NCBI GenBank assembly: GCA_963735595.1
Contig: CAVTLK010000002.1
Span: 224,001 to 288,000, forward strand
DNA: 64,000 nt
Source: an uncultured delta proteobacterium
Lineage (GTDB): Bacteria > Desulfobacterota > Zymogenia > Zymogenales > Zymogenaceae
Reading direction: 5' to 3'
Part shown: one piece after another, positions 10,144-48,896 of the stretch
How positions within the stretch are numbered: the first letter of the stretch is position 1
How the letters are laid out: every line of letters starts with the position of its first letter
Notes under the pieces: model-generated
Databases searched by the model: none
Told to the model about the DNA's origin: nothing
The model's input: the letters and a program-made list of their open reading frames with translations, nothing else
Position numbers and translations under genes: made by a program

Positions 10144-10175
10144 ACAACGCCCTCACCAAACGGTAAGGGCGTTGT
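10144..10175. terminator. Hairpin between convergent genes (probable bidirectional terminator)
   Basis: ACAACGCCCT...AGGGCGTTGT 10-bp stem. Confidence 0.6.
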
Positions 10176-10234
10176 CAAAAAGTTTGGGCGGCTATACACC
10201 TGTCCGCTCGAGTATTCCAATCCTTTTACCTAAT

Positions 10235-13753: not shown

Positions 13754-13761
13754 AGAAAGAA

Positions 13762-13802
13762 ATCACACAAAATTTACACTGCGTTTATACGAAATTCTCA
13801 TA
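13762..13802 (+). promoter_or_regulatory. Candidate Pho box
   Basis: ATCACAC / TTTACAC / TTTATAC repeated at 11-bp spacing upstream of pstS. Confidence 0.65.
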
Positions 13803-13848
13803 GCAGGGCTATCCTCATTACAATACAGCACATTCTACAAGGAGGATT

Positions 13849-14895: not shown

Positions 14896-14954
14896 CGTAT
14901 GAAAAAAGGGGGGGGGATATTCCCTCCCCCCACCATTTTCGCTGGAATAAATAA

Positions 14955-15860: not shown

Positions 15861-15861
15861 G

Positions 15862-16695
15862 ATGACGGTACGGGCAACATATATTCGCATCGTGAAGGAT
15901 CAGCTGTTTCACGCCCTGGTTATTCTCCTGGCGGCCTGTTCGATAGTCCCGCTCGCGCTGATCCTCTATTACATCACCGTCAAGGGTTTTAATGCCATTA
16001 ACTGGGAATTTTTAACGTCCCTTCCCAAGCCGGTGGGAGAAGTGGGCGGCGGTATCTCAAACGCAATTGCCGGAACGATCATGCTCGTCATAATCGCGTC
16101 CTGTTTCGCGCTTCCGATCGGCGTGATGACCGGCGTGTTTTTAAGTGAAAATAGGAATAGGAAGATTGCCCACGTAATTCGTTCTTCCGTGGAGATCCTC
16201 ATGGGTATCCCCTCGATTATCCTGGGGATTATCGCGTACGCCTGGGTAGTGGTCCCGATGGGCGGCTTTTCCGCCCTCTCGGGAGGCGTTGCGCTGGCCA
16301 TAATGATGCTCCCGGTCATTATCAGGTCTACCGAGGAGACACTCAATCTCATCCCGAACGATCTGAAAGAGGCTTCGCTGGCCATCGGGGTTCCCTACTA
16401 CCGGACGATCCTCAAGGTCATCATCCCGGCGGGGGCAAGCGGGATCATCACCGGCGCCCTCCTCGGTGTCGCCCGCATCGCAGGGGAGACGGCGCCGCTG
16501 CTCTTCACCGCGTTCGGCAGCCCCTGGATGAACCTTAATCTTTTCAAACCGGTCAACTCGATGCCCCTGTTGATATATTATTATGCGACAAGCCCGTATG
16601 AGGACTGGCACAACATTGCCTGGGGCGCTTCTTTTGTCCTGATTGTCTTTATTCTTGGTCTGAATCTCATTACAAAACTGGTCACCAGGAAATGA
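15862..16695 (+). CDS. pstA: Phosphate ABC transporter permease
   Basis: GIPSIILG, EASLAIG, ARIAGETAPLL. Confidence 0.96.
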   Translation: MTVRATYIRIVKDQLFHALVILLAACSIVPLALILYYITVKGFNAINWEFLTSLPKPVGEVGGGISNAIAGTIMLVIIASCFALPIGVMTGVFLSENRNRKIAHVIRSSVEILMGIPSIILGIIAYAWVVVPMGGFSALSGGVALAIMMLPVIIRSTEETLNLIPNDLKEASLAIGVPYYRTILKVIIPAGASGIITGALLGVARIAGETAPLLFTAFGSPWMNLNLFKPVNSMPLLIYYYATSPYEDWHNIAWGASFVLIVFILGLNLITKLVTRK

Positions 16696-17450
16696 AAAAC
16701 ATTATTCTACGGACGGAGAACCTTTCCGCATTCTTTGGGAAAGAAGAGGTGATCAAGAAGGTCTCCGTCTCATTCGAACGGAACAAGGTTACGGCGATCA
16801 TGGGCCCGTCGGGGTGCGGCAAGACTACCCTGATCCGCACCATCAACCGCATGCACGAGATCACGCCCGGCGCGACGATTACGGGGAAGATCTATCTCAA
16901 TGACGAGAACATCTCATCGATGAACCCGATCCTCGTGAGAAGGAAAATCGGGATGGTTTTCCAGCGCCCGAACCCGTTTCCCACCATGAGCATTTTCGAA
17001 AACGTCATCGCCGGATATAAGCTCAACAGCATATCGCTCTCGCGCGATGAAAAGAACGCGATCGTGGAGGATTCGCTCAACAAGGCGGCCCTGTGGGACG
17101 AGGTCAAAGACATCCTCCACCGTAAGGGGACGTTTCTTTCCGGCGGGCAGCAGCAGCGCCTCTGCATCGCCCGCGCGCTCGCCATGAAACCGGACCTCAT
17201 CCTGCTGGATGAGCCGACCTCCGCGCTCGATCCGAAGGCGACGGCAAGTATCGAGGAGCTGATAATCCTGCTAAAGGATACGGTCACGATCCTCATCGTG
17301 ACGCACAACACGGCGCAGGCTGCGCGGGTATCGGATTTTACCGCGTTCATGTACCTTGGCGAGCTTATTGAATATGGGACGACAACGAAGATGTTTACCG
17401 TCCCCGACCACAAGAAGACTGAAGAGTATCTTACCGGAAAGTTTGGTTAG
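16692..17450 (+). CDS. pstB: Phosphate ABC transporter ATP-binding protein
   Basis: GPSGCGKT, FQRPNPFP, LSGGQQQRLCIAR, DEPTSALDP. Confidence 0.97.
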   Translation: MKNIILRTENLSAFFGKEEVIKKVSVSFERNKVTAIMGPSGCGKTTLIRTINRMHEITPGATITGKIYLNDENISSMNPILVRRKIGMVFQRPNPFPTMSIFENVIAGYKLNSISLSRDEKNAIVEDSLNKAALWDEVKDILHRKGTFLSGGQQQRLCIARALAMKPDLILLDEPTSALDPKATASIEELIILLKDTVTILIVTHNTAQAARVSDFTAFMYLGELIEYGTTTKMFTVPDHKKTEEYLTGKFG

Positions 17451-17459
17451 AGGAGCGCT

Positions 17460-18110
17460 ATGTTAGCAAGCAAAATTATCTCTTTGAAAAAGGACCTCGC
17501 CTTTTTCGCATCGCTGATCGAAAAGATGATCGAGGCAAGTATCCAGGGATTGAAAGAAAAAGACGTTCCAATGCTCAAAGAGATATTAGCGGTACATGAG
17601 CCGAAGGCAAACAGGCTCGAAAATGAAATCGATGAAGAGTGCATCGGCCTCATTGCCACGTTTCAGCCGAAAGCAAAAGACCTTCGCACCATCCTCATGG
17701 TGATGCGGATGAATAACGATTTGGAGAGAATGGGTGATCATGCGGAGAACATCGCCGAAAGCGCGATCTTTTTGGCCGAACGTCCCTTTGTCAAGCCCCT
17801 TGTTGATATTCCCCGGATGGCCGCGATAACCATAGAAATGCTAAAAGACGCGATAACGTCATTTATCGATGAGAACCCCAAGCTGGCAAAAGACGTGTGT
17901 ATGCGGGACAACCAGGTGGACGATCTTCATGAGCAGATCATTCGTGAGCTGATCACCTTCATGACGGGAGACCCGACGACAATCGAGCGATCGTTACATC
18001 TATTAAGAATCGGGAGGAATCTGGAAAGAACGGCCGACCTCTCGACGAACATCTGCGAAGATACGATTTTCATGGTAGAAGGAAAGGTTATAAAGCACCA
18101 TAAGAGATAG
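17460..18110 (+). CDS. phoU: Phosphate signalling/transport regulator
   Basis: QPKAKDLR, DLERMGDHA, NLERTAD; last gene of the pst operon. Confidence 0.95.
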   Translation: MLASKIISLKKDLAFFASLIEKMIEASIQGLKEKDVPMLKEILAVHEPKANRLENEIDEECIGLIATFQPKAKDLRTILMVMRMNNDLERMGDHAENIAESAIFLAERPFVKPLVDIPRMAAITIEMLKDAITSFIDENPKLAKDVCMRDNQVDDLHEQIIRELITFMTGDPTTIERSLHLLRIGRNLERTADLSTNICEDTIFMVEGKVIKHHKR

Positions 18111-18225
18111 GGTCTATAACACATACGCCATTAAAAAATAGGGGGTTAGATGTCTTTCTAACCCCCTGTCATTATTTCTATGCGGCGTCGCAGCCCGGGA
18201 TTGATAGCCTTGGACACTCGGAATT
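18111..18225. repeat. att-like site A: hairpin plus degenerate tRNA-Phe 3' fragment
   Basis: GGGGGTTAGA..TCTAACCCCC hairpin (18141-18166), then cggcgtCGCAGCCCGGGATTGAtagccttGGACACTCGGA (18183-18222) matching the tRNA-Phe 3' end. Confidence 0.8.
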
Positions 18226-18631
18226 AGATAAGCCATTTTGAAATCAAGTAGCTCAAGAGTGCAGTAAGCGTACAAAGACACATGCCCCAGACTATGTCAG
18301 CTATAACGACGACCAATGGCCAGTTCTTAATCGTTGCCAGGTTCGACAAATCATAGGTCGCATAGGTAAAGAACCCAAACAGGGCACCCAGGACAGCGGC
18401 CTGTACCCACGAATTACTGTTCACCGCCGGCCGAACGGCAAAGATAAGGATGCCCACAATAAATATCAGGTAGAACGTGATGGCTGCCGCCCAATTGATA
18501 CTGGGACTTAGAATAAACCCAAGCTTTCTTTGGTAAAACCCCTTCGCGATAACACCCAGCCATAACATATCAATTGCGAAAAATACCGGTACCGTCAACG
18601 CGTAAAGCTTGAGGTAAAATGAAATACTCAT
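18224..18631 (-). CDS. DUF2177 family membrane protein
   Basis: IDMLWLGVIAKGFY, GALFGFFTYATYDLSNLAT, DIVWG. Confidence 0.85.
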   Translation of the reverse strand: MSISFYLKLYALTVPVFFAIDMLWLGVIAKGFYQRKLGFILSPSINWAAAITFYLIFIVGILIFAVRPAVNSNSWVQAAVLGALFGFFTYATYDLSNLATIKNWPLVVVIADIVWGMCLCTLTALLSYLISKWLI

Positions 18632-18790
18632 CGCATTCCCTCCTCTTAACGTTCTTGTTGGTTACTGTATGCCGTCAGTAAAAGGCTGAACTCCAACGGT
18701 CGGGTTCTAAGCTGCGTACCAGGCCTTGGCTATATCCTGAGAAAAGCTCTGACAATAACAGTCCTTCCTGTATTTTCCCTGTATACCTCC

Positions 18791-19570
18791 TTATCGCTTC
18801 TTGACAAACCAGGGGATCAAGACGCTTGTCCGCCTTCTGTATTCCTCGAAACCGGGGGTCTTTTCCATAAGTCGCTCGGTCATGGGTATCCCCGAGACGA
18901 GGACGATCATGAGCGTAATCGTCAGCGGGCCGACGAACCCGATCCACCCATAGGGAACCGACAGCGCGATAATATATATGCCCCACCACATCGTGATCTC
19001 ACCGAAATAGTTCGGGTGTCTCGTATAGCGCCACAATCCCCGATCCATGATGGTTCCCCGATTCTTTGGATTTGCCAGGAATTGGTCAAGCTGATAATCT
19101 CCCACGGACTCGAAGATGAACCCGGTCATCCAGATAAGAAGACCGCATGCATCGAGCACATTCAGGCTCCCGTCGCTTGTTGTGTTTATAATGAGAACCG
19201 GGCTGATGTTGACTAAAAGGATCGCTCCCTGGAGGAGGAAGACTTGAAGATAACTCCTCGGGACGAAGAAACGGCCCCACTCTTCCCGCCATTTTCGATA
19301 ACGTGGATCTTCCCCTCTGCCCCGGTTCCGACGAAAGATCCGTATCGAGAGCCTGCTTCCCCAGATCAGGACGAGGATGCAGGTCAGGAGCTGTCGCGGA
19401 TAAAAATTGCCGACAATCCACAACGTTAACCAGGCAACGATGACAAACCCAAATCCCCACGCGATATCGGCGACGCTGTTATCCTTGCGAATCAGTGCGA
19501 TGACGAAAAGTCCCGTCATGTAGCCGAAGATGATTATCGCCGCGATGAAGAACGTGTTTACCATTTCCAT
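18791..19570 (-). CDS. DUF1295 / steroid 5-alpha-reductase-like membrane protein
   Basis: DNSVADIAWG, GEDPRY, GLWRYTRHPNYFGE, SGIPMTE. Confidence 0.88.
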   Translation of the reverse strand: MEMVNTFFIAAIIIFGYMTGLFVIALIRKDNSVADIAWGFGFVIVAWLTLWIVGNFYPRQLLTCILVLIWGSRLSIRIFRRNRGRGEDPRYRKWREEWGRFFVPRSYLQVFLLQGAILLVNISPVLIINTTSDGSLNVLDACGLLIWMTGFIFESVGDYQLDQFLANPKNRGTIMDRGLWRYTRHPNYFGEITMWWGIYIIALSVPYGWIGFVGPLTITLMIVLVSGIPMTERLMEKTPGFEEYRRRTSVLIPWFVKKR

Positions 19571-19657
19571 TGAAACACCTCCCCCTCCTCGTTTCCAACA
19601 AAGGCTGATCTCACAGGCATAGGAATTCTTTCTCGTAGATACGATACACGAGCTGAT

Positions 19658-20431
19658 TTACCTGCGAGGCAGGTTTCTCTCGAATCCCGACTTTATTATA
19701 TCTCTTATTTGTTCCACCGTGTCGTCAATCTTATCCCGGTCTTTTAGAGAGACCGAAACCGGCCGATGGATTTCCATAACGGCGCGACCGGGGAACAGCC
19801 TGGTCGTTCCGGGGGGGAGGATGGACCTCGTCCCCGAGATAGATACTGGGAGGATCGGTATACCCAGGTCCGTCGCCAGGGAAAAGGCTCCTTTCTTGAA
19901 AGGGCCGATTTCCCCCGTCTTGCTCCTTGTCCCCTCGGGTAAAATGACAACTGATGTCCCCTCCACGAGCTTTTTCTTGGCCGCCTCCAGGGAAGCGTTG
20001 GCGGCCTTGGGGCTGCTCCGGTCTATGTATATGTTTCCGCCCATCTTGCCGGCAAAACCAAATACCGGGACTTTTCTCAGTTCCTTTTTCATTACCCACT
20101 TAATGTCAATGCCGAGCCAGCCGTAGAGAACAAAAATATCGTATGAGCTTTGGTGATTTGAAACAATAACATATGACTGTCCCTTCTTGATGTTCTGTCT
20201 CCCGAGGACGGTCACACGCATCGGCGTGATATAGCTATTAAAGCGGGCCCACCAGACACCCGTCGTTCGATGGGCGACCTTGTCTCCACGGAGGATTACG
20301 ACGATAACGCCGAGAAACACGAAGAAAATAGTGGAAAGTATCAGTAAAGGGATGACGATTAGCCAGACATAGACCTGGTATATCCGGAAAGCGATTGGAT
20401 TTTCGCGGCGTAAAAATCTGCCCGGGGCCAT
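19658..20431 (-). CDS. plsC: 1-acyl-sn-glycerol-3-phosphate acyltransferase family
   Basis: NHQSSYD (HX4D), LPEGTRS, FKKGAF. Confidence 0.85.
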   Translation of the reverse strand: MAPGRFLRRENPIAFRIYQVYVWLIVIPLLILSTIFFVFLGVIVVILRGDKVAHRTTGVWWARFNSYITPMRVTVLGRQNIKKGQSYVIVSNHQSSYDIFVLYGWLGIDIKWVMKKELRKVPVFGFAGKMGGNIYIDRSSPKAANASLEAAKKKLVEGTSVVILPEGTRSKTGEIGPFKKGAFSLATDLGIPILPVSISGTRSILPPGTTRLFPGRAVMEIHRPVSVSLKDRDKIDDTVEQIRDIIKSGFERNLPRR

Positions 20432-20633
20432 TACTGCTAACCTACTAAATACACTATTGTACTATTATAATAGAATACTTTTAAGAGTCAATGGTCGGGA
20501 AGTAGCTTCAGCTTTGCGGGGTTATTGGCTATTGAGGGAGTGGACAGCAAGAGAGTGGCGGAGGGTACAAGAAAGAATACCGAAATCCGCAGCCTAAACT
20601 CAGATTCCAATCGAAGCACCACCTGCGTATCCG

Positions 20634-20846
20634 GTAACACATCATAACAAAAGGGTTACGAAATATCGTAACCCCTTTATATCAGTGGTGCCGCAGCCCG
20701 GGATTGAACCGGGGACACTCGGATTTTCAGTAGCCTCGTCTTGACGATACTGTACTGACATCATTGTATTTTCAATTCCCTACGATGCCCTCGAGTGCCC
20801 CGGAATGCCCTCCAATACCCGGCTTTTGTAACACTTTTTGTAACAG
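20634..20846. repeat. att-like site B: hairpin, exact 46-bp tRNA-Phe 3' fragment, conserved arm
   Basis: Hairpin 20649-20678; 20686-20731 identical to 33827-33872; five 10-bp phased repeats 20771-20820; TGTAACA at 20827 and 20839. Confidence 0.93.
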
Positions 20847-20925
20847 TATCAAACGGATAGGCATATCGAGTATCCTTATAGGAAGACCTTGGTTTGTCCT
20901 TCAATAATCCATCACCTGCCAAGTC

Positions 20926-22512
20926 TTAGAGGGTACGACGAATTCTGTCATCGAGTAGTAGCTTCTTCTCGATCGCCTTACGCACTGTTTTGGCAAGAAC
21001 GTTATAGTCAAAGGGTTTCTCAATATAGTCATAAGCACCGAATTTAACCGCTGCAATCGCCGAGTCCTTATCCGCGTTTCCGGTGATAATGACCACCTGA
21101 GAATTAGGAGACTTGGATTTTACTTCTTTGAGTACCGCTATGCCGTCTTTCTTCGGCATGACGATATCGACAACGATGACATCATGTCTTTTAGTACCGT
21201 ACTCCTCGATAGCCTGCTGACCGTTTTCAGCCAGATCGACGCTCAGAAAGCCGTCGTCCTCCAGATATTCCTTGATCGTCTTTCTTATATTCGGTTCGTC
21301 ATCGGCGATCAGTATCTTCGCGTTGAAAACATCCTCCTTATTGATCTCGGGCAAGGGGCTGGTTTCCAGCAGGTTGTCAATTACCTCATCCTCCGCAAAG
21401 GAAATCTCTTCTTTCTGGATAGAGTACCTTCGCCCTTTCAGTAGGTTCCAGATATAGTACGCAAGCTCCTCTATAAAGAAATCTTCGCCGTGCTCCGAAT
21501 GGCTTTTCTGTTTGACGACCTTCTCCGGTTTTTTCAGGAAGTACGATGCCCCCATAAAGAGGGATTTCAGTTTTGTTTTGGGATCCGCGACTGACGTCAC
21601 GACTATAACGGGCACGTAGGGATAGTTATCTCTCAAATACGCCATGAGATCGTTTCCGCCGTATTTTTCTCCTTCGTCGGAGAGCCCCTTGATTTCAAGT
21701 TCCGTGACAAGCACGGCCGGAATTCTCTGGGTTTCGTATTCAATAATTCTGCCGAGAGCTTCTTCAGCCGTACTAAAACGTACCGTTTCAAAACCGAATT
21801 CCGTAAGACCGTCGGCGACGGCCCTTCCCGTTTCGGGGTTATTATCCACGACCACCACGACTTCGTTCGGCCTAAAGGCTCCGATCCTCTTCGCAACGCT
21901 CTCAATGGTCATCTTGATTCTTTCGCTGGTGATATCGTTTTCGTTGGTGGCTATTCTCCTAACGGAGGCAAACAGGTTGCTATGGGGCATGCCCACCGCC
22001 GCTTGTACTTCGCGTCGCCTTGTTGGGCCCCCTTCTTGGCTTCCTTCTACTTTCTCAATATCTATCAATATCTCCTCGGGGACGTTTGAATAGGAGTCCT
22101 CGTAAAACCGATATAGACCGCTCCAGAGAAACATGCTTCTTAGAACTAATTTGGAGTTATCGTTTACTATACGGCAGAAAGACTCCCGGGACAGAAAGCC
22201 TTTTCCTACTAAGTGGGATTCCAGGATATTATTCGGTTCGACCTTCTGTACCTCTAATAGCTCATTGATCTGGGTTTCGCCGACAAGTCCCTGCCGGGTG
22301 AGGTTTTCTCTAAGAGTGGCATACATTCCTGGGGAAAAAACCATGGCAATGTAACCCTCGTAGAGCGCGATGAATCCGTCCCCGTCCCGGGAACTGATGT
22401 TAAGCTCTCCCGTGAGCCCGTTTGTTTTTATCGTCTTCAGGATAAGGGATAGCTGTCCGCTCTTAAAGCTCCCGGACGGAATGCGTTTATAGATTCCAAC
22501 AGCCTGGTTCAT
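20926..22512 (-). CDS. DUF4388 (PatA-N-like) plus two receiver domains response regulator
   Basis: N-terminal TGELNI..G.I...EG.I...W.G.Y.F domain; central atypical REC; C-terminal canonical REC (IADDE, VDIVMP, KPF). Confidence 0.8.
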   Translation of the reverse strand: MNQAVGIYKRIPSGSFKSGQLSLILKTIKTNGLTGELNISSRDGDGFIALYEGYIAMVFSPGMYATLRENLTRQGLVGETQINELLEVQKVEPNNILESHLVGKGFLSRESFCRIVNDNSKLVLRSMFLWSGLYRFYEDSYSNVPEEILIDIEKVEGSQEGGPTRRREVQAAVGMPHSNLFASVRRIATNENDITSERIKMTIESVAKRIGAFRPNEVVVVVDNNPETGRAVADGLTEFGFETVRFSTAEEALGRIIEYETQRIPAVLVTELEIKGLSDEGEKYGGNDLMAYLRDNYPYVPVIVVTSVADPKTKLKSLFMGASYFLKKPEKVVKQKSHSEHGEDFFIEELAYYIWNLLKGRRYSIQKEEISFAEDEVIDNLLETSPLPEINKEDVFNAKILIADDEPNIRKTIKEYLEDDGFLSVDLAENGQQAIEEYGTKRHDVIVVDIVMPKKDGIAVLKEVKSKSPNSQVVIITGNADKDSAIAAVKFGAYDYIEKPFDYNVLAKTVRKAIEKKLLLDDRIRRTL

Positions 22513-22574
22513 CTCTTATGCACCTCAAAGATTGTGCGCCGCAGTGACACCCGGAGTCCCCTTCGGACTTGTTT

Positions 22575-25475
22575 TCAATCGTTAGATAGGACTTCACTCA
22601 ATACTACTAGTATATCTTGAATTTCAAAGGGCTTTTCGATATATCTGTTGCCCGTGATATTCAAGAACTGCTGCGTTTCCTGGCCGAGGACGTCGCCGGT
22701 AATGAATATAATTCTTTTTGCAAGATCGGGATTCTGATTGACCAGGTAAGCGTATAATTCCTTGCCCCCCATCGTCGGCATCTTTATGTCGGAAATAACA
22801 GCGTCGAACTTCCCTTTTTTCAGAATTTCGACGGCCTTCAGGCCATTGTTGGTCGATTCAACAAAGTAACCCTCGCCCGTGAGGGTCTCTGTGATCATCT
22901 CACGCAGGGTGTCTTCGTCGTCGACGATCAGAATTGTCATATTCCCGGCGGGTTTATTTAGCACTTTCCTTTCGTGTGTGACTATAGGTTCCACATGCCT
23001 TACTACGGGTAATTCAATAATGAATTTCGTGTACTCTCCTGCTTTGCTTTCCACTTCTATCATCCCACCATGTTCGGCGACGATGCCGTAAATAATGCTG
23101 AGGCCAAGCCCGGTACCCTTGCCTACTTCCTTGGTGGTAAAGAATGGATCGAAGATCTTTTTTCGGTTTTCCTCGGGGATGCCGTCCCCATTGTCGGTGA
23201 ATTCGATGCGTACTTCTCCGTCCATATAACGGGAGCCGATTGTTACCGTACCGCCTTTTTTATTTATAAGGGCATCATGGGCATTGTTGATGAGGTTGAT
23301 GAACACCTGCTGGAACTGGAAGGGGTCGACGGCCGTCTCGGGGAGGTCGGCTGCAAGATCCAGTTTTATAGCGACGTTATCCACCCGCAACTCATACTCC
23401 CTGAGTTTGCAGGATTCCATGATGATATCGTTAATGTTAAGTATCTTTCGTTCGGGTTTGTGCTCCCGGGCGAACGCCAGCAGGCCGCTAACGATCTTCG
23501 TGCACCGGATGGATTCTTTCTGGATTGTCTCCAGCTTCTCCTTATACTCGCTCGGGATTTCCTTTCGCGTCAGGAGCTGGGCGTTGCCGATAATGGCGGT
23601 CAGGGGGTTGTTCAGCTCGTGGGCGACGCCGGACAATATCCCGCCCAGGCTGGAGAGTTTCTCCATCTGGAGGATGCGCTCTCCCATCCTCTTGGCGTCG
23701 CTAACATCCCTGATGATACCCTGAATACTACTGATGTCCCCATCATCGTCTTTACGGGCCGTTGCCGTGATGAGACAGTCGACAAGCTCGCCGTTTTTCT
23801 TCTTTAAGATCACCTCATAATCCTTCACAAACCCTTCTCTGACTAGCTTCCTCATGAGCGATTCACGGTCACGCGGGTATTTATAGATATCATCTAACTG
23901 TATTTCAAGTAACAAATCCCTGGTATACCCGAGGAGTTCTTCACCGGTACGGTTGATATCGATGAACCTCCCCTCTTTGGTGGACAGGTAAATGACGTCC
24001 TTGGAGGATTCGAAGAGGTTTCGCCACTTTTCTTCCGACTCTCTGATCCTGATCTCCCCCAGCCGTTGGGACAGCGCCATCGCGACGCTGTCTGAAAGCC
24101 TTTCGAATAGCGAGATCAACTCCGGGGTGAAACATCCCTTTCTTTTATCGTTAAACTGAATCAGCCCGAACGTCTCGCTTCCGTAGCGCAGCGGGACGAG
24201 CGCCACCGACTCGTACCCCTCGCCGTTGCACCTGTTCCTTATGCGCGCCTGCCGATCATTTTCAGTAGTGGTTGCTAAAAGCCCGGTCGTGCTATTCGTC
24301 CAGTAACTCCCGTTCTTGGTGAAGAATGGCTTTGAGGGATCGAAACGCCCCCGTATGACGTTGCCGCACATGCACTCCAGTATCGGATTGCCCGCATCAT
24401 CGCGCAGCAATTGCCCCGATTCGTCATACGCGCACAGTCGCCTCTCCAGCTCGACGAATCCCTCATGGAAACCCTTTGTCTCGAAGTAGGGGAAATCCTC
24501 CCCGTCCTGAAGCCTGATGCCCACCGCCTCAACCCCGAACGACTCATGGAGAGCCGCTATTAGAGATTTTATGAGTTCGGTGATGTCGTACGTAGTATTA
24601 ATGGAGCGCAGGACCTTTAACGTTGTCTCGCGTTCATGTTCTAACTCCTTCTGCTCGGTGATGTCCTGGAAGGTCCCCGTGAGCTTTACCACCTTGCCGT
24701 TAGTCGTCACCGCCCGGCCGATCGCGCGGGTCCAGAGATGCCGCCCTTTCGCGCTGGTGAACGGGAGCTCAAGATCGTACGAGTCTCCCTTCTCGATGCC
24801 ACGGCGCATTGCCTCCTCAAGAACGGCCCGGCCAGGCTCATCAAAAAAAAGAGCCGCTTTCGACAGACGGATACTTTCTCCTTCGTCAACCTCGTGAATC
24901 CTGTAGGTCTCTCTCGTCCAGTGGACCTCCTTTGTGTCGGCTAAGAGCTCCCAGCCACCCACATGCGCCATGGTGCCGACCTCATTGAGCAGGGTTTCGC
25001 TTTCCAGCAACGCTGCCTCCGCCTTCTTCCTCTCCATAAGCTCCCGGCGAACTTCCTCAAGGAGCCGCCGGTTTTCCAACACCAGGCGTTGCTTTTCGAG
25101 AACGTCGGCGACCTTTCCCAGGACCTCATCCATGTTCAGCGGCTTGGTGATGTAGCCCGCCGCCCCCTCGTTGAGGGCGCGCACCGACGTGTCAAGGGAG
25201 GCGAATCCGGTGGCCATTATGACCGCAATATCGGGATTGATCTCCTTTAAAGGCTTGATCAGCTCGATCCCTAATATATCGGGAAGCCTGATATCTAAGA
25301 GGGCTAAGTTGAAGAACTTCCCCGTCACCGCGGCAAGCGCCTCCTTTCCCGTCCCGGCCGTGTGCGTCTCATAGCCCTTCTTCTTGAAAATCAAAGAAAG
25401 GCTCTTTCGGGTGCTCTCATCGTCATCGACGATCAGGATGTGTGCTTTCTCTTCCATCTTCGTGCCTGTTTTCAT
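22575..25475 (-). CDS. Hybrid histidine kinase (REC-PAS-GAF-PAS-HisKA-HATPase-REC)
   Basis: Receivers at both ends, VGGWE PAS, Cys-rich GAF ([18 protein letters not shown]), [16 protein letters not shown]. Confidence 0.93.
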
Positions 25476-26224
25476 CGTTTGCGGTATTTCTTACGCACTA
25501 TTTCATCCACCATTCTGAGGAGGACCTCGATGTCAAAGGGCTTGTAGATGCAGGTGTAGGCGTCGCTTTTTATGGCATCATTAACCAGTGTCTCCGTCTC
25601 CTGCCGATACGCGGTAGTCATGACGGCCACCGTTTCCGGACTGACCTTCTTGAGGGAAAGATAGGTTTCCAGGCCGTTTATCGTCGGCAGTTTCATGTCG
25701 ATGAAGATGATCCGGTATTTCTTCTTTTTTGCCATCCGGATCGCCTCTTCGCCCGTATGGGCGATGCCGGTCTCGTATCCTTTTCGCGTGAGGATATTTT
25801 TCAGGGTAACGCACGTGCTCTCGTCGTCATCCACCACAAGGATAAAGCCCCCGTCTTTGCTTTTCATCGCGTCGTCGATGAGGGCGGTCACCGTTTCGAT
25901 ATCTATGGGCTTGTACAGTACTCCGCCCACCCCTTCTCTCAGGGCTTCCTGGATCAGCTCATCGACCGCATACGCGGTCATCATCATGACGACGGCCTCG
26001 GGACGTATCTTCTTAATCTCTTTATATGCCTCAACCCCGTTCATGACAGGCATTTTGATGTCCATGAAGATGACGTCAAACGGCCTCTCCTTGACCCTCT
26101 CGATAGCCTCAGACCCGTCCTTGGCGGTGGCGACCTCGTACCCCTTGCGCTTGAGGATAAGAGAGATCGTCCGGGTCTGGCTTTCGTCGTCGTCCACGAT
26201 TAAAATAGCAGGATTCTTTTCCAT
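25472..26224 (-). CDS. Tandem two-receiver response regulator
   Basis: Two REC domains (IVDDD..MDIKMP; VVDDD..IDMKLP), no output domain. Confidence 0.92.
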   Translation of the reverse strand: MEKNPAILIVDDDESQTRTISLILKRKGYEVATAKDGSEAIERVKERPFDVIFMDIKMPVMNGVEAYKEIKKIRPEAVVMMMTAYAVDELIQEALREGVGGVLYKPIDIETVTALIDDAMKSKDGGFILVVDDDESTCVTLKNILTRKGYETGIAHTGEEAIRMAKKKKYRIIFIDMKLPTINGLETYLSLKKVSPETVAVMTTAYRQETETLVNDAIKSDAYTCIYKPFDIEVLLRMVDEIVRKKYRKR

Positions 26225-26225
26225 G

Positions 26226-28109
26226 TTACCTTCTCTCCCCGATGCCGACGGGCAGCCGGACCGTAAACGTGCTGCCCTTGCCGACCCTGCTCTTTACCTT
26301 GATCGTCCCCCCGTGGCCCTCGATCAGGGTCTTGGTGAGCGCGAGACCCAGGCCCACGCCCTTGGCCTTTGTGGTAAAGAGCGGCTCAAAGACCTTCTTG
26401 ATATTTTCCTCGGAGATGCCGGCGCCCGTATCCGTAACGGAGACGGCGACATGCCCGGCGTCTGAGGTTTCGGTCTTTATCGTCAATTTCCCCCCCTCGT
26501 GCATGGCCTGAGCCGCGTTTCTAATGATATTCCCGAACACCTGCCCAAGCTGATCAGGATCGGCAAGGACGGTCGGTAGCGATCCCCACTCGCTGGATAC
26601 GGCGACGTTTTCAGGCATGGTTATGCGGGACAACGACTCTTTGACCACCTCGTTGATATCGGTCTTTCGCATAACGGGCAGTTTTGGGCGGGCAAAGCTG
26701 AGAATACTGTTAATGATTCCCTCGGAAATCTCCACCTCTTTGCCGATGATCTCTATGGATTCGCTAACCTCGGGGTCCGGTTTCTCTACCGCCATCTTGA
26801 GGAAGTAGGCGGCGTTCTTGATGGCCCCCAGCGGATTTCTCAGCTCATGAGCCACTCCGCCGGCCAACTGGCCCAGAAGCGCCAGTTTCTCACCGCGGAT
26901 GAGTTGATCCTGGGCGTCTTTGAGTTTTTGGATCATCTTCTCAAAGGCAACGGCGAAACTGCCAAGCTCGTCCTTCCTCTTGAGTAGTTCGGGATCGACC
27001 TTCACGTCGAGTTTCCTTGAGGCGACCTCACATGTCATCACCGTCAGTCTATTGATTGGCTTAATAATCGACAACGATAAGGATATGACGATGAGTATAC
27101 CGGTAATAACAAACACGAGTGAAGTTATCCCCATCACCCTGCGCAGTGCTAATATCGGCTTGAGGACTTCTTTCGCGTCGTATGAGACCAGAAGGATCGC
27201 GTTGAGGCCCCGGTAACCGAGATACGGTTGGGAGCGGGCGTAGGAAAAGAGTTTTTTCTTGCCGCCTACTTTGGCTATGAAAAATCCGTCATTTCCTTTG
27301 ATCTCTTTATAGAAGCTCTTTCCCGACATGTCTTCGAGAAAGGAAAAGGCATTCGTCGCGTAGATAAGCTTGCCTTCCTGCGTGATCAGCCTGATTTCCA
27401 TCGTCTCGGAGGTTTTTTTTGAGATCTCCGCCTTGGTAACGACGTCCTTGAGGCTCAGGATGCCGCCGATCACCCCGATGAAGTTACCCTGGTCGTCGTC
27501 TACCCTGACAACGGTGTTGACCCCGTACGTATCCGAGCTCTCGTCGTAAAAGATATCGCTGACGAAAGAGCCTTTGTCCCGCGCGTTCTTCCAGTTATCG
27601 TACGTATCGTTCCGGTAACCGGATGTCCGGCCGGTAACGGCCACGGCCGCTCCGTATTTGTTCGTGACGATGATCTCGCTGAAGACGGTGTACCCGTATT
27701 TCCTGTCGTAAAAATCGATGAACTCGCTCCTCAGTGAGGCCGACAGCCTGTTATCCATGATCCCCCTCACGAAGGGGTCCTCCGAGCCGGGCGGGGCCGA
27801 AACCCATTCCTTGTCCCTTCGGCTTAGGTACTCCTCGATATCGGGGATACTCTGGAATTCCCTGTTCGATGCCTCGAGCGTCTCCTGCAGCAGGTCGTGT
27901 TTCGAATGTATTTGGAGAAGCTCAGTTTTATTATATATGTACTGGTTCATCCGATCGAGCATCTCCTCGGTGACAAGTACCGTGTTACTGCCGATGGATT
28001 GTTCCAACGCCTTCTGGCTCATAACCACCAGGTAGAGCGCCATGGCGACCATTAAAAGCAGCATCAGCAGAAAGCCGATAGAGAGCCTCGTTCCTATCTT
28101 CATGATCAT
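26226..28109 (-). CDS. Membrane sensor histidine kinase (Cache-like periplasmic domain, HAMP)
   Basis: Two TMs, HAMP (RKDELG), AHELRNPL, FTTKAKGVGLGL. Confidence 0.92.
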   Translation of the reverse strand: MIMKIGTRLSIGFLLMLLLMVAMALYLVVMSQKALEQSIGSNTVLVTEEMLDRMNQYIYNKTELLQIHSKHDLLQETLEASNREFQSIPDIEEYLSRRDKEWVSAPPGSEDPFVRGIMDNRLSASLRSEFIDFYDRKYGYTVFSEIIVTNKYGAAVAVTGRTSGYRNDTYDNWKNARDKGSFVSDIFYDESSDTYGVNTVVRVDDDQGNFIGVIGGILSLKDVVTKAEISKKTSETMEIRLITQEGKLIYATNAFSFLEDMSGKSFYKEIKGNDGFFIAKVGGKKKLFSYARSQPYLGYRGLNAILLVSYDAKEVLKPILALRRVMGITSLVFVITGILIVISLSLSIIKPINRLTVMTCEVASRKLDVKVDPELLKRKDELGSFAVAFEKMIQKLKDAQDQLIRGEKLALLGQLAGGVAHELRNPLGAIKNAAYFLKMAVEKPDPEVSESIEIIGKEVEISEGIINSILSFARPKLPVMRKTDINEVVKESLSRITMPENVAVSSEWGSLPTVLADPDQLGQVFGNIIRNAAQAMHEGGKLTIKTETSDAGHVAVSVTDTGAGISEENIKKVFEPLFTTKAKGVGLGLALTKTLIEGHGGTIKVKSRVGKGSTFTVRLPVGIGERR

Positions 28110-28121
28110 CTCCTCCCATCC

Positions 28122-29219
28122 CTATCTCAGGTATTCGATTTTACCGTCGACAATCCGAGCCGGGTACAGGGGATAGTCCATATCATGCCCGCCGGGCTTG
28201 ACCGTGATATCGCCGAATACGCCGGGATACGTAAGTCCGCCGGACAACAGCTTCCTAACGGATTCTCTTGATAGCTCCTTTTCTTCGAGGAGGCCCGGCA
28301 GCAGTTTGATAAAATCATACCCGGTAGCTGCCTGTTGGCTCAGCGGTTTCCCATACCGTGTCTCGTATTTCTTCTTCAGTTCTTGAACTAAAATAAAATC
28401 AGGATGATACAGGATGGATGTGGCGATATTTACACCGTTGGCCTCGGGAGTTGTCTCAGCATACATGGAGAAACCCGAGACCGCGAGAATAGAACCTTTA
28501 TAGCCGCTTTTTTTCAGCTCTTCGATTGCTGTCCTTGCGCTATTGGCGAAAGCGACGACGTAGATCGCCTCCATATCCTTTAGCCGTCCGATCTTATCTC
28601 CAAATATGGGATTTGATGTGTCAAAGGATTCACCCTGCACGATCCCGCCCGTCTTTTCAAACTGAGCTTTCAGCGGATCATAAACGGAGCGGCCGTACTC
28701 GTCATTCTGGTAGAGGATTCCGACTTCTTTAGCCTTTAAATCCTCCAACAAGTACAGGGCGATTTTCGCTTCATCATCGGAGGACGTATAGTATCTGAAT
28801 ACCCAGTCGTTCTGTTTCGACAGTTCGGGATCAGATACCACCACGCCGACCAGGACTACCCCGTGCTCCTTAGCCAGAGGGGCCAGCGCCATGGAAACTG
28901 AGCTGTTTGTAGAGACGTACAAAAGGGGATGGTAGGTTGACTCAATCTTCTCGAAGACCTTTTTTGCCTCTTCCGGGTCGGATTTGCTGTCCTCGACGAT
29001 CAACTCCAACTTCCTCCCGTTTACACCGCCCCATTCGTTGATCTCGTCAACCGCCAGCATCATGCCATCCCTAACCTCTACAAGATGAGAGGACGCACCG
29101 GTGAGCGAGATGATAGCGCCGATCTTGATGGTCTCCTTCTTAAAGGAGCATGTCGCGGCGAAAAGGCAGATTGTCGCCGTAAACAGAAAGATCAGTAACA
29201 GAGAGAGCATTTTTTTCAT
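28122..29219 (-). CDS. Periplasmic binding protein, branched-chain amino acid (type 1) family
   Basis: Signal peptide, IKIGAIISLTG, AVDEIN..GGVNGRKLELIVEDS, GYD. Confidence 0.9.
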   Translation of the reverse strand: MKKMLSLLLIFLFTATICLFAATCSFKKETIKIGAIISLTGASSHLVEVRDGMMLAVDEINEWGGVNGRKLELIVEDSKSDPEEAKKVFEKIESTYHPLLYVSTNSSVSMALAPLAKEHGVVLVGVVVSDPELSKQNDWVFRYYTSSDDEAKIALYLLEDLKAKEVGILYQNDEYGRSVYDPLKAQFEKTGGIVQGESFDTSNPIFGDKIGRLKDMEAIYVVAFANSARTAIEELKKSGYKGSILAVSGFSMYAETTPEANGVNIATSILYHPDFILVQELKKKYETRYGKPLSQQAATGYDFIKLLPGLLEEKELSRESVRKLLSGGLTYPGVFGDITVKPGGHDMDYPLYPARIVDGKIEYLR

Positions 29220-29992
29220 TTACGGTCTCCCGTTTCTTATATGATGCATGGCCCATCGCGGTAGCCTGTCTCTCAATAGGCCGCCTGGTATACGCGTTTT
29301 CGATAGATCGACGCACTGAAGAATACAAATCGTACTTTCGCGTTTACTGCATCAGGTTATTTGTATTAATAAACTCGCGAAGGTAATCTATCAACAAGAA
29401 ATCCATCGATACTCAGCGTTTCTTCTTCTTGCCGGTCAAAAAAAGGAGATTCTGGGCGACTCGTCGGCTGCTTGCTAGGCTTTCTGCATACAAGGCGTCC
29501 GTCTTATTCGCGTGATCTGCGTAGGTTGTGGTGTGAGTTGAATGAAGAGTATTCGAACGGTATCGTGCGGAGGTGGCCGAAGTGACATAGCAAACATTGA
29601 TGATCCAAGTAATAGTAATCACTTATCGTTGAATTATTAAAACTTACTATATATTTTACTATATTGAAATGACTTTGTCAAAATAAATGGTTTAAAGGGC
29701 AGGGCTGAAATTAATAAAGAAGAACATTCCGAATAGAACTGGCTCATTTCTTTGCATAAATGAATTCAATTACCGCCGAAACGCCCAGTATACTCCTCCC
29801 GGATACCTTCGGTGGTGTGCTTGGTATAACGCCCGTTTTTGATTGTCGAATGATACGGGAGCCGTTTAAGCTTCGCAAGGTTATTGGTATCGTTAGGAGA
29901 ATAAGCGGCAAGGGGATGATAAATAGCGGGGCACTAAGAATAGAATTCAGGGCCAAATCCCGACATACATCAAGTTATTTCAAATATATCCT

Positions 29993-30227
29993 ATAACACC
30001 CATAGCTATTCATAAAAGAGGGATTAGGTGCATACCTAATCCCTCACTATGAACGGTGGTGCCGCAGCCCGGGATTGAACCGGGGACACTCGGATTTTCA
30101 GTAGCCTCGTCTTGACGATAATGTACTGACATCATTGTATTTTCAATTCCCTACGATGCCCTACATTGCCCTAGAATGCCCTACAATGCCCCGGTTTCTG
30201 TAACACTTTTTGTAACAGTTTTGTAAA
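29993..30227. repeat. att-like site C: hairpin, exact 46-bp tRNA-Phe 3' fragment, conserved arm
   Basis: Hairpin 30018-30045; 30057-30102 identical to the tRNA 3' half; arm 30103-30218 nearly identical to 20732-20846. Confidence 0.93.
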
Positions 30228-30621
30228 TGACAATCAGAGTATTGATTTAAGTTAGTGTGTCTCGGAAGCAGTACCTGATTTACAGTACCGCCTGCGTGCG
30301 CGGGCTCGTTCTCTGATACTAGTCGACACTATTCAACCCCAGGTTATATCGCCTATGGACCAATAAAATCATACCTATGGGCCGGACATATATGATAATA
30401 AACTGACTTTATTTTCAATTGACCAAGTATACAGTATTCGATACTATACTAATCAGCCAATGAAATAATGAGAGAGGGTTTTTCGCTGTTTTATTAATAT
30501 GATCTAAACGAGAGCTTGATTTGTCTTTCTTATCTTGATTGCTAAAAAAGGCAGTGATCTTTCTTGGTGGTAATGCCTTCGTACAATCAAATAGTGCCAA
30601 CAACAAAATTAGGGGGAGAAA

Positions 30622-30987
30622 ATGAAAAAAACCGCTCTTTCTTTTGTGCTGGTATTAATCGTGCTTGTTTCTTTTATGCTCGGCCGTGCTAACGCGGGTG
30701 ACATTTCACTATATGGTGAAGACCTGTACGATTCCGAGGGTTATAATTATGGCGTGAATTACTATGCCGACAACAACACCGGTTCGGACCTTTACGCCGT
30801 CGTCTATATTACGTCTCAAGAGAACGTAAACGGTGACTGCGTGTACGGTATGATACTACTGGCTCCGTATGAATCGCATGTCCTTGTCGGCTCATTCGCA
30901 ACCGCCGATTATAACTACGGGTGGTCTGTCAATATAAGCGCTAATTACGGCCCCAGCCCGGAACAGGTGGACGCGCCGCCGTACTAA
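30622..30987 (+). CDS. Secreted hypothetical protein (acidic, Tyr/Asn-rich)
   Basis: GGGGAG RBS; signal peptide ending ANA. Confidence 0.7.
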   Translation: MKKTALSFVLVLIVLVSFMLGRANAGDISLYGEDLYDSEGYNYGVNYYADNNTGSDLYAVVYITSQENVNGDCVYGMILLAPYESHVLVGSFATADYNYGWSVNISANYGPSPEQVDAPPY

Positions 30988-31198
30988 CCCGTCCTTAGTG
31001 AAACGTTTTCCGACCGCTCGATTACGATGAATTGAACGGTCTCTTCTCGGGAATGGGTAATACGGGAGATGTGTGCCTTTCGGCTGACCCGAGCAGGCGC
31101 GTTGTTGATTGTAACGGCGCACGGATGCCGGTGGCCTGTTGATAAGGACGACATACTTTTTTGCCTTATTGTGTGCCAACTAACGGTGAGGTGACATC

Positions 31199-31654
31199 AT
31201 GAAAAAGGCGTTTGCGGTTTTCTTTGTTCTCCTTCTCGGGTGCGGCATGGTCGGTAGTGCTGTCGAGTTTTCCACCGTGGCCGAGGGGACCCACGCGGCG
31301 GGGATCACCGGGAAGGTCAACGAGGTCTTTACCGACCAGGCGTCCTTTTACGCCTTCTGGAAGCTGGTTTCGGCCGGCACGACCCCCGAGCCTGCCGCGC
31401 CGGCGATAGACTTCGCGAAAGATATGGTCATCGCGGTCTTCCCGGGCCAGATGAACTCGGGCGGGTACACCGTCGAAATCACCGAAGTAACGAGCGACCG
31501 CAAGAAGCTCATGGTAACGGTCGTTGTGACCAAGCCCACGGGCTTCGCGACGACGGTCATGACCCAGCCCTACCACATCATTAAGGTCAAGAAGACAGAA
31601 CTTCCGGTCGATTATACGTGGGAGGAGCGGACTTCGGATTCAGCTAATGAATGA
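31199..31654 (+). CDS. PrcB C-terminal domain protein (protease complex subunit PrcB family)
   Basis: IDFAKDMVIAVFPGQMNSGGYTVEI...TQPYHIIKV; signal peptide. Confidence 0.85.
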   Translation: MKKAFAVFFVLLLGCGMVGSAVEFSTVAEGTHAAGITGKVNEVFTDQASFYAFWKLVSAGTTPEPAAPAIDFAKDMVIAVFPGQMNSGGYTVEITEVTSDRKKLMVTVVVTKPTGFATTVMTQPYHIIKVKKTELPVDYTWEERTSDSANE

Positions 31655-31755
31655 GGATGCTCGAAAACTTGCTTGATCATGTGTTTCAAATCAGATTTCT
31701 GAGTTGGGAAGGTATGTAAGACGGATTTGCCGCATTATCTCAGAAGGAGGAGGAT

Positions 31756-33213
31756 ATGGAAATTGAATATCTTGTTTTTGTTCTGTTTCCTCTATTGGTT
31801 ATGTTGCTACAGGTTGCCCTGTACGTCCTGGTCAGCGTTTTCGCTCCGAGCTTGTTATTATGGAAAACCGCAAGTATTGCACGGGCAGGCGACCACGCAT
31901 TTAAGAAGGCCCTCGTTACGTCCCTGAAAGCCACTCTCGTGATCTGGATTGCGGTCATTCTTCTTGTTTTAATGTTTTATAAGCCGGGAGTAGTCATGCC
32001 GGTATGGCCTCTCGTTTGCGGGACATTACTGGGCGTTCTTTTATTGCTCCCCGTTATCCGGCGGGCCTACAAAATCACATGGGGCAAGGCGACCGTGGTA
32101 TGGTCCGTCTTCGGGATCGCTCAAATTGTAATCGTGCTGTCGGGTTTGTACCTCGTCGGTTGGATGCGACCCCTAGATCTGAGTTTTTTAAGCCCGTCCG
32201 GTACTGCGGGCGAAGGCGCCGCTCCGGCTATTTTGGAGGGCGTCATCCCGGGCGGCCCGCGTATTGCGATTGCCCCTCAGTTTGACAATGCGGGTAATTT
32301 CAGCGAGGGGCTGGCGCGTGTTATGTTTCTGAGGAAATTGTTCCCTGCTCTGCTCCCCGGGAAGTGGGGATACGTAGATAAGGAGGGCAATATGGTTATA
32401 AAACCCCGGTTCCGCGAAGCCGGAGATTTCAATGAGGGATTGGCACGGGTCGCCGTGTGGTGGGACTATGGTTATATAGATAAGACGGGCGCAATCGTCA
32501 TAAAACCCCAGTTCGACGAAGCCGGAGATTTCAGCGAAGGATTGGCGCGGGTCGTGGTGAAATCGAAGTTCGGTTACATAGATAAGACGGGCGATTTCGT
32601 TATACAACCTCAATTTAACTGGGCCGGGGATTTCAGCGAGGGGTTGGCACGAGTCTTGGCCGGTGGTAAATACGGCTATATCGATCGGACGGGAAAGACG
32701 GTTATCGCCCCGCAGTTCGAGGGTGCAGGGAGGTTCAGCGAGGGGCTGGCATGGGTTAAGGTGGGGAGGTATGAGTATGGTTATATAGACACGACCGGGA
32801 AGATGGCCATCAATCCGTGGTTTGAAAATGTCTCTGATTTCCATGAAGGTCTGGCGGCTGTTATGATTACTAGTGATCATTGGGGCTTTATAGACAAGAA
32901 AGGAAATGTAGCGGTGAAGGAAGGTCCTTGGGAAGCTGGGGATTTCAGCGAAGGGTTGGCACGGGTTGATGTTGAGTTTTCGCATTTATGGGCCTATATA
33001 GATAAGACACGGAATTTCGTCGTGGACTTCAAATTCACTGATGCGCGGGATTTCAGTGAGGGACTGGCAGCGGTTAGGTCGGGGAAATGGGGCTATATAG
33101 ACAAATCCGGGAAATATATAGTAACCCCGACATTTGACGAAGCCTTGGATTTCAAAGAAGGCATGGCACCAGTCAAAGTAGGCGACAAATGGGGATACTT
33201 GGTGATTAAATAA
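31756..33213 (+). CDS. WG-repeat (KWG Leptospira-type) protein with multi-TM N-terminus
   Basis: About nine FSEGLA.V...K(W/Y)GYIDK.G repeats after four hydrophobic helices. Confidence 0.92.
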   Translation: MEIEYLVFVLFPLLVMLLQVALYVLVSVFAPSLLLWKTASIARAGDHAFKKALVTSLKATLVIWIAVILLVLMFYKPGVVMPVWPLVCGTLLGVLLLLPVIRRAYKITWGKATVVWSVFGIAQIVIVLSGLYLVGWMRPLDLSFLSPSGTAGEGAAPAILEGVIPGGPRIAIAPQFDNAGNFSEGLARVMFLRKLFPALLPGKWGYVDKEGNMVIKPRFREAGDFNEGLARVAVWWDYGYIDKTGAIVIKPQFDEAGDFSEGLARVVVKSKFGYIDKTGDFVIQPQFNWAGDFSEGLARVLAGGKYGYIDRTGKTVIAPQFEGAGRFSEGLAWVKVGRYEYGYIDTTGKMAINPWFENVSDFHEGLAAVMITSDHWGFIDKKGNVAVKEGPWEAGDFSEGLARVDVEFSHLWAYIDKTRNFVVDFKFTDARDFSEGLAAVRSGKWGYIDKSGKYIVTPTFDEALDFKEGMAPVKVGDKWGYLVIK

Positions 33214-33644
33214 AGGAGTGAGTAAGCTGCCGGAGAGGCAGGTGCGATATACTCGTGGATCGTGTGAATATGAGAATCTTAGGCAAGGTTACGCTTAACC
33301 CATCAGTGGGTCTTGTGACAAGAAGCCCTCTAGTAATACAGGACTTCTTCCCTTTTTCGACTTATACGAGGGCTCTAACGAATAGAGAACCCTCTTCCTT
33401 TAAAACACACCACCGAAACGCCTCGATATACTCCCCCCGTATATCCTTAACGGAATACTTAAAACTAGCGCTTTGCGCATTTGATATTCGAATGGCCCAA
33501 GAGTTTTTCGCCTTAGCAAGGCTCTAGGACAGTTGAGAAAGTTGTTAGCGAGGCAATGAGGTAAGCGTGTGGGAGAAGATCGATTCCGTGAATTTTCCTG
33601 CAAAGTAAAAAATAGAGCTGTTTCTGCTCCCTATAGACATGACT

Positions 33645-33812
33645 ACCGGACTTCGGATAAATAGGTCATGACGCACATAAACGACATTATATATCTCCAA
33701 GATTCCCTGGAATGCTCTACAATTCCCTCAAATTCCTTCGGATTCACTATTTTCTATGACACTTTTTGTAACACCAATTATTAAGGGGCCAGATAATTTT
33801 CTAACCCCTTAA
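33645..33812. repeat. Degenerate att arm (site E) and hairpin immediately downstream of tRNA-Phe
   Basis: Five 10-bp phased repeats 33701-33750; TATGACA/TGTAACA at 33755 and 33767; hairpin TTAAGGGG..CCCCTTAA 33781-33812. Confidence 0.7.
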
Positions 33813-33826
33813 TAGTATTAGTCAAT

Positions 33827-33902
33827 TGGTGCCGCAGCCCGGGATTGAACCGGGGACACTCGGATTTTCAGTCCGATGCTCTACCAGCTGAGCTACCGCG
33901 GC
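33827..33902 (-). tRNA. tRNA-Phe (GAA)
   Basis: GCCGCGGTAGCTCAGCTGGTAGAGCATCGGACTGAAAATCCGAGTGTCCCCGGTTCAATCCCGGGCTGCGGCACCA; 76 nt cloverleaf with encoded CCA. Confidence 0.98.
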
Positions 33903-48851: not shown

Positions 48852-48896
48852 TAGGGTTTGTAGGTGCGCAGTGCTCTCCCCCGGCGCGGGCAACCT

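Follow-up and report, generated by a model that had tools for sequence, protein, structure and literature searches.

The DNA considered here is a 64,000-nucleotide stretch (the window) from an uncultured delta proteobacterium of the family Zymogenaceae (assembly GCA_963735595.1, below G000; contig CAVTLK010000002.1, positions 224,001 to 288,000, that is G000:C2:224001-288000). Behind its tRNA-Phe gene lies a tandem array of three segments, A-B, B-C and C-tRNA, which are separated by displaced copies of the end of that gene and carry different cargo. A preliminary description had taken the array for an integron-like set of integrase-less cassettes, and we were concerned with its make-up and probable origin. 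The G000 assembly is 93% complete and consists of five contigs. It was compared with nine relatives from the same family (G001-G009, of which G001 belongs to the same genus), so that the family set comprised ten genomes including G000.

Architecture of the tRNA-Phe locus

The features of the locus are collected in Table 1. Cores B and C are identical to tRNA-Phe over exactly 46 nt, starting from tRNA nt 31, one base ahead of the anticodon loop. All copies lie in the same orientation, with start-to-start spacings of 2503, 9371 and 3770 bp. The preliminary description had reported these two exact copies and one decayed copy, the end of the identity at the anticodon loop and the unrelated cargo of the three segments; all of this was confirmed, the gene identities by Pfam. 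The GC content is 48-51% in the segments, compared to 58-61% in the flanks. An Rfam scan found nothing in the window beyond the tRNA, and a profile search revealed no fifth core or arm to the left of core A. Short palindromic repeats resembling repetitive extragenic palindromes occur outside the array (window 2050-2084, 3558-3594, 44589-44729 and 48895-48963).

The segments share one order of parts: tRNA core, hairpin, arm motif, 3' stub of a recombinase gene, cargo, a 115-nt arm and the next core, the arm being lost in the oldest segment. A hairpin follows each core in the direction of the tRNA, and all hairpins are different. The arm that precedes cores B and C is built from paired GTGTTACA repeats, repeats with a 10-bp period and a stretch next to the core, which we take to be putative sites of the arm, directionality-factor and core types in an att arm of a tyrosine integrase. 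The two arms are 93-95% alike (93% over 142 nt when the core is included), while of the arm at core A 47 nt are kept in G003. As judged from the sequence, B-C and C-tRNA appear to retain att sites at both ends, with exact cores and arms, as is looked for in cis-mobilizable elements (CIMEs); in A-B the distal arm is lost and the core decayed. The common layout of arm and core across the segments bears out the shared att architecture proposed earlier.

The same arm family extends well beyond this locus. Twenty-four arms from nine of the ten family genomes can be aligned, at cores of seven tRNA targets, and in this alignment the 10 nt adjoining the core vary with the target. The junction next to the tRNA gene itself (type T) has homologues, alike over its full extent, behind the tRNA-Arg cores of G001, G005 and locus L111. 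Its 33-bp partly symmetric site is conserved in these junctions and was not found in the intact parent element of G001 described below. Displaced fragments are also present at other tRNA genes of G000 (Thr, Arg, Leu, Pro and Met; C1:133568-151775, C1:1018428-1018590, C5:50629-60976, C1:645402-648466 and C2:714353-724532), where the Thr, Arg and Leu loci carry the same arm and the Thr and Arg loci a recombinase stub as well. In G003 two loci (C3:14213-16797 and C2:149022-157592) hold arm-bearing tRNA-Arg(TCG) fragments that face each other in inverted pairs, whereas the tandem at tRNA-Phe is direct.

Table 1 Features of the tRNA-Phe locus, from the tRNA gene leftwards (window positions)
Feature	Position	Strand	Basis or remark
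tRNA-Phe(GAA), target gene and anchor of the array	33827..33902	-	only tRNA-Phe copy in G000
Terminator-like hairpin after the tRNA, presumably attP-derived	33779..33814	-	same kind follows the tRNA of the intact parent
tRNA-side arm copy (type T), GTGTTACA-type and 10-bp periodic repeats	33675..33773	-	nhmmer E 2e-7
33-bp partly symmetric core-like site (13-7-13 reading)	33638..33670	-	conserved in 5 type-T junctions
Recombinase 3' stub, segment C-tRNA	33408..33602	-	nhmmer E 1e-22; 67% nt to intact gene
WG-repeat protein, 485 aa, cargo C-tRNA	31756..33213	+	PF14903
PrcB C-terminal domain protein, cargo C-tRNA	31199..31654	+	PF14343; 80% nt copy elsewhere in G002
121-aa protein, signal-peptide-like N terminus, cargo C-tRNA	30622..30987	+	no Pfam family; 79% nt copy beside tRNA-Pro(CGG) fragment in G001
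Distal (P) arm, segment C-tRNA: arm repeats, 10-bp periodic repeats, core-proximal site	30103..30217	-	sequence/profile search
Core C, exact last 46 nt of tRNA-Phe	30057..30102	-	sequence identity
Hairpin after core C, then degenerate arm motif near 29999	30018..30045	-	sequence
Recombinase 3' stub, segment B-C	29771..29923	-	nhmmer E 9e-20; tblastn 54% over 48 aa
Five-gene signalling module, cargo B-C	20926..29219	-	Pfam
Distal (P) arm, segment B-C	20732..20846	-	sequence/profile search
Core B, exact last 46 nt of tRNA-Phe	20686..20731	-	sequence identity
Hairpin after core B, then arm motif at about 20634-20640	20653..20674	-	sequence
Recombinase stub, segment A-B, 3' end also cut	20478..20608	-	nhmmer E 2e-12
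Acyltransferase, DUF1295 and DUF2177 genes, cargo A-B	18224..20431	-	Pfam
Core A, decayed tRNA-Phe fragment	18183..18225	-	84% over 37 nt; arm lost in G000
Hairpin after core A, then degenerate arm motif	18138..18169	-	sequence
phoBR-pstSCAB-phoU block	11289..18110	+	Pfam; at tRNA-Phe locus in G003, not at tRNA-Phe in G002 or G005

Recombinase stubs and the parent element

Close behind the junction on its tRNA side, every segment carries decayed remains of the 3' part of a gene for a 186-aa tyrosine recombinase of the PF00589 family. The clue came from G004, in which an open C-terminal tyrosine-recombinase frame was seen behind tRNA-Phe when the DNA behind the cores of the relatives was translated. 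The stubs were searched for with a profile of four intact recombinase alleles, for which the reversed-genome control gave a best E value of 0.3. All six strong matches in the whole genome span only nt 358-560 of the 561-nt gene, and the stubs are 63-88% alike to the intact alleles. The preliminary description had stated that no integrase, transposase, phage or conjugation gene is present. This holds for intact genes, none of which was found by Pfam among the 70 translated open reading frames of the window, and PF00589 had no match in the window proteins; it does not hold for decayed ones, as three of three segments contain the stub. A decayed integrase gene in each segment had been named as the mark of ordinary degraded islands, and to the letter such a gene is present, but the stub comes from the small second recombinase of the parent and not from its integrase. 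That the segments lack autonomy at present, as had been proposed, is in agreement with the recombinase stubs being all that remains of such genes in them.

The stubs do not all begin at one point. Among 50 matches in the sampled loci 31 start at codons 110-145, 12 earlier and 7 later, a tally that is biased, as many loci were chosen by a C-terminal query and the 12 earlier starts include intact genes and pieces cut by contig ends. The scattered start codons do not bear out a single exact deletion breakpoint for all stubs. In a tree of 27 of the 39 rows (rows shorter than 120 nt or below 72% identity were dropped, including two window stubs, win_B and win_T) the stubs are mixed with intact alleles and no branch is starred, and the approximately unbiased test does not reject a single stub clade (p 0.155). 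When a conserved DNA site was sought in the 3' end of the recombinase gene, a mild gradient was all that was seen. A split integrase of the SSV or Mx8 type, with the att site inside the integrase gene, was rejected, since no 5' piece of the gene was found at the distal ends or beside the distal arms. The end of the A-B stub overlaps the -35 element of a promoter-like site (11/12; 20491-20464) facing the acyltransferase gene, and in G001 the copy of this gene at tRNA-Arg is preceded by a short patch of a similar kind. It is possible that the dead recombinase gene has been reused as a promoter; promoter-like sites overall were not above chance (22 compared to 16 +/- 4 expected).

An intact parent was found in G001, as a 46-kb element at tRNA-Ala(GGC) (C48:1487-47648). 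Its order is tRNA, hairpin, paired GTGTTACA repeats, a convergent gene for a 376-aa integrase, backbone and defence genes, the intact 186-aa gene, cargo, arm and displaced tRNA fragment, and its distal arm is 89% identical to arm C. The window segments match this element at both ends and the middle is gone, which points to an origin by deletion from an integrative parent; at the level of sequence this derivation is well supported. Deletion intermediates were also seen: in G004 (contig C201) a C-terminal stub of the integrase is fused to a small-recombinase stub behind tRNA-Asn, and in locus L098 an integrase of the other type, truncated at its 5' end, is joined to an intact small-recombinase gene behind the end of a tRNA-Arg. 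The small recombinase (G001:C48:7801-8361; L032; proteins P0003-P0015) has a catalytic domain only, with no N-terminal domains, and its predicted catalytic set appears to be complete (R43, K67, H133, R136, H159, Y168). Among 401 genomes of the phylum, matches above 45% identity are confined to this bacterial family.

G000 holds a copy of the same backbone at tRNA-Arg(TCT) (C5:908461-941710), with 92-96% nucleotide identity over three blocks and 84% over a fourth; it runs into the contig end just before the expected position of the small recombinase gene. The backbone comprises two HerA/CedD/VirB4-like ATPases, a Cas4-like nuclease, an FtsZ-like protein, a methylase-helicase pair and the 186-aa recombinase. 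The resident tRNA-Arg integrase looks intact and is 25% identical to the 376-aa enzyme of G001, and its arm repeats differ in sequence and spacing. One backbone resembling an integrative and conjugative element (ICE) is thus seen at tRNA-Arg(TCT) in G000 and at tRNA-Ala(GGC) in G001, with integrases only 25% alike. A phage was rejected as parent, as neither the two recombinases nor the arm had a close relative in viral contigs and a further scan gave only full-length matches of 27-28%; phage structural genes were absent from the 17 element proteins scanned with PHROGs.

Two features of the assembly were observed in passing. The galK and xerC genes and several genes of the C5 element are split by frameshifts (window 3764-4988; G000:C2:414456-414930; C5), which are probably assembly indels. 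The last 48 kb of contig C1 (1030000-1077780) have a GC content of 0.39-0.44, compared to about 0.57 before, and include housekeeping-like genes; this end is possibly a chimeric join or a large foreign block.

Origin of the array and competing explanations

The locus varies among the relatives. G003 (about 91% nucleotide identity) has cores A and B, the A-B cassette between them and the pho block in common with G000, and the genes between its two cores are the same at 93.5%; next to its tRNA-Phe lies an unrelated 10-kb unit, and the B-C and C-tRNA segments are absent. G002 has no tRNA-Phe fragment in 62 kb, and there the left flank that it shares with G000 (at about window 7,500) is separated from the tRNA by only 6.7 kb, occupied by other genes. 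G004 has its own tRNA-Phe array with stubs. No fragment was found in 9.2 kb beside tRNA-Phe in G005 or in about 10 kb in G007; contigs end near tRNA-Phe in G006, G008 and G009, and the gene was not found in G001. Identical gene order without cassette variation, which would have spoken against a capture array, is therefore not what the relatives show. Gain and loss of cassettes, which had been expected, were seen at the tRNA-proximal side only, and the reordering that had also been looked for was not seen.

The variable region reaches left to about window 7,700, some 10 kb beyond the start first reported (18111). Positions 7700-18110 contain phoBR-pstSCAB-phoU, a Hint-domain gene and a hybrid kinase (7821-10037) absent from G003. 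The pho genes may be the cargo of an older fourth unit, of which the distal att site was not found. The signalling module in B-C consists of a periplasmic binding protein, a dCache histidine kinase, a dual receiver, a hybrid PAS kinase and a DUF4388 receiver protein, and as a block it was not found in any of the nine relatives.

Each segment is bounded by a copy of the tRNA tail and carries the same broken recombinase stub, so the three are likely to be leftovers of one element family. We consider it about 70% probable that they are stripped, CIME-like remnants of a single family of tRNA-integrating elements, and that they accumulated as one site-specific integration after another took place at the anticodon loop of tRNA-Phe. 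The junctions would have been made through this 7-nt loop by an integrase of the G001 clade that is specific for tRNA-Phe. Deletion would then have removed the integrase and the backbone, from the tRNA-side arm to about codon 113-135 of the small recombinase, and later units would have entered between the tRNA and the older ones. The earlier proposal of tandem islands with attP-like junctions and crossover at the anticodon loop is supported.

Several observations weigh against this explanation. The identity of the stubs to the intact gene shows no gradient from the tRNA-proximal to the distal segment (67, 70 and 69%), and this, together with the exact cores B and C, argues that the two proximal units did not arise by simple decay in place after complete arrival. 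For a putative transfer module of the parent there are weak VirB4/CedB/CedD/TrwB-like ATPase matches only, and no relaxase was recognised among the parent and backbone proteins. A Phe-specific integrase was not found in the ten family genomes or in four alignment- or protein-based scans of sequence collections. No circular or empty form and no core-to-core joint occurred among the joints listed, which came from contigs of four runs with relatives of 85-97% identity only.

Some stripped units may also have moved. The arm motif is in register with the stub, within 2 nt, in junctions B and C, in two G003 junctions and in locus L104 despite differing cargo, and no look-alike of the motif was found at the matching place in intact recombinase alleles. 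The similarity of the spacers exceeds that of shuffles with p 0.0005-0.06, values partly inflated by overlap with the stub. The A-B cargo block is also present beside an arm at tRNA-Arg(TCT) in G001 (87-90% nucleotide identity compared to a background of 78-80%) and beside a tRNA-Pro(TGG) fragment and arm in G004 (78% compared to 71%). As the same stripped junction is found with different cargo, and the same cargo and junction at other tRNAs, the stripped units probably kept moving after they had lost the integrase, and these signs of movement weigh against plain decay in place. The simplest route would be accretion to a complete element and mobilisation in cis with it, or recombination with one.

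The preliminary description had supposed that one integrase serves the cassettes in trans. An active integron-like capture array of non-autonomous cassettes, served for instance by the integrase of the resident tRNA-Arg element, would be consistent with the near-complete backbone and intact-looking integrase in the same genome, with the exact cores B and C and their similar arms, with the type-T junction behind both Phe and Arg cores and with the constant register of arm motif and stub. We nevertheless hold it to be improbable, because the sole candidate enzyme has other arm repeats and neither reordering nor a circle was seen; the cassettes are in addition multi-gene units on both strands, and no IntI or attC-type site was found. 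In G000 the search for the G001 integrase clade gave no member, and the tRNA-Arg enzyme is the only integrase found there outside the Xer type. An integrase flanked by the same arm, which had been suggested as a thing to look for, does exist in the tRNA-Ala element of G001, while in G000 none matching these arms was found. As the G000 assembly yielded no matching integrase, the array probably stays inactive as long as no matching element enters the genome.

Cargo could also have been swapped between tRNA arrays, and units duplicated or lost, by homologous recombination of the host through the stub and the 115-nt arm, with no integrase needed after the first insertion. The three-gene A-B block, with its arm-side spacer and a short stub-like patch, occurs at tRNA-Phe in G000 and G003 and at tRNA-Arg in G001 with the excess identity given above, and in the arm tree (2 of 21 branches starred) the arms group weakly by host and not by tRNA target. 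The blocks of homology are short (about 115-200 nt) and the stubs diverge from the intact alleles to the extent described, the excess between G001 and G000 is matched in G004 and may reflect gene conservation, and formation of the first junction is left unexplained; we regard this route as unlikely to account for the array. That the repeats are an artefact of assembly is very improbable. The assembly does contain frameshift-like errors, as in xerC and galK, and no contig from the four runs spans the array, but 7% of sites differ between arms B and C, and no two hairpins or stubs are the same. Misassembly is largely refuted by G003, where two of the junctions, those at cores A and B, occur independently around the same genes.

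Relation to known systems and implications

The array resembles integrons in that cargo units lie between related recombination sites and growth takes place at one end. Integron cassettes are mostly single-gene, promoterless and co-oriented, and their attC sites have the motif RYYYAAC...GTTRRRY. On either strand of 18111-33902 this motif, at a spacing of 40-130 nt, had no match. No IntI was found beside the array: against the TIGR02249 cut-off of 265 bits the 186-aa recombinase scored 69 and the two large integrases 80 and 43. The segments hold 3, 5 and 3 genes, two segments on the minus and one on the plus strand, with promoter-like sites inside them. The likeness to integrons on which the preliminary description was built fails on all three counts. 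The junctions here are double-stranded, tRNA-derived att sites, and the units are multi-gene and bear relics of their own element.

The segments are closer to CIMEs, as their integration and transfer genes are lost, with the recombinase stubs alone remaining. CIMEs and tandem accretion are reportedly treated by Pavlovic in 2004 and Bellanger in 2011. According to two reports, CIMEs have lost their genes for integration and transfer and still possess attL and attR, and elements that arrive later insert next to the target gene (PMC5704250, PMC7563491); the most decayed unit is the most distal one (PMC7563491). The present remnants agree with that account in being stacked at the 3' end of the target gene with att sites kept, in their sizes, which fall within the classical 1.2-13 kb, and in the most distal unit being the most decayed. 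Unlike the units described there, the present ones have no complete element in tandem with them now. Their parent is ICE-like but unclassified, belongs to a Desulfobacterota-related family and has a second recombinase made up of a catalytic domain only; the remnants share a regular stub of that recombinase gene and have the same junction types at several tRNAs.

Tandem ssrA islands of Dehalococcoides are likewise bounded by repeats of the target-gene end, and an integration module is missing from 15 of 31; the histories of the integration and cargo modules are discordant there (PMC3146451). They have one target, ssrA, with a 20-bp repeat, whereas here a 46-nt core is found and one arm family serves seven tRNA targets. 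Islander catalogues tandem tDNA islands with an intact tRNA, displaced 3' fragments in the same orientation and crossover at the anticodon loop (site A), as seen here, but its members need an integrase gene of their own (PMC4383910), which none of the present segments has. In a literature search that covered few subscription papers and no supplements, no paper was found that describes this element family or the regular recombinase stub.

The array is a real, strain-variable tandem of att-bounded units, which are likely to be remnants and to represent a known mode of genome growth and not a new integron. It is a well-documented case of a known process, in which parent, deletion intermediates and remnants are all visible within one family. 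Three aspects go slightly beyond the routine, namely the visible parent, one backbone with two integrases 25% alike at two tRNAs, and stripped junctions common to different cargo and tRNA targets. Tentatively, and with more doubt than conviction, we suggest that a backbone-less mini-vector lineage (tRNA core, hairpin, arm, recombinase 3' stub, cargo, arm) has arisen a few times from this element family and still circulates, picking up cargo, switching tRNA (Phe, Arg, Pro, Ala and others) and borrowing integrases or transfer genes from complete relatives such as the tRNA-Arg element of G000. It would then be a non-autonomous gene shuttle for tRNA islands across one bacterial family, comparable to miniature inverted-repeat transposable elements. 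If this were true, integrase-less tRNA cassettes, which are discarded by island finders, would be an active cargo shuttle between loci and genera, and the 24 arm/core pairs would provide a ready set for testing how tyrosine integrases switch their tRNA targets.

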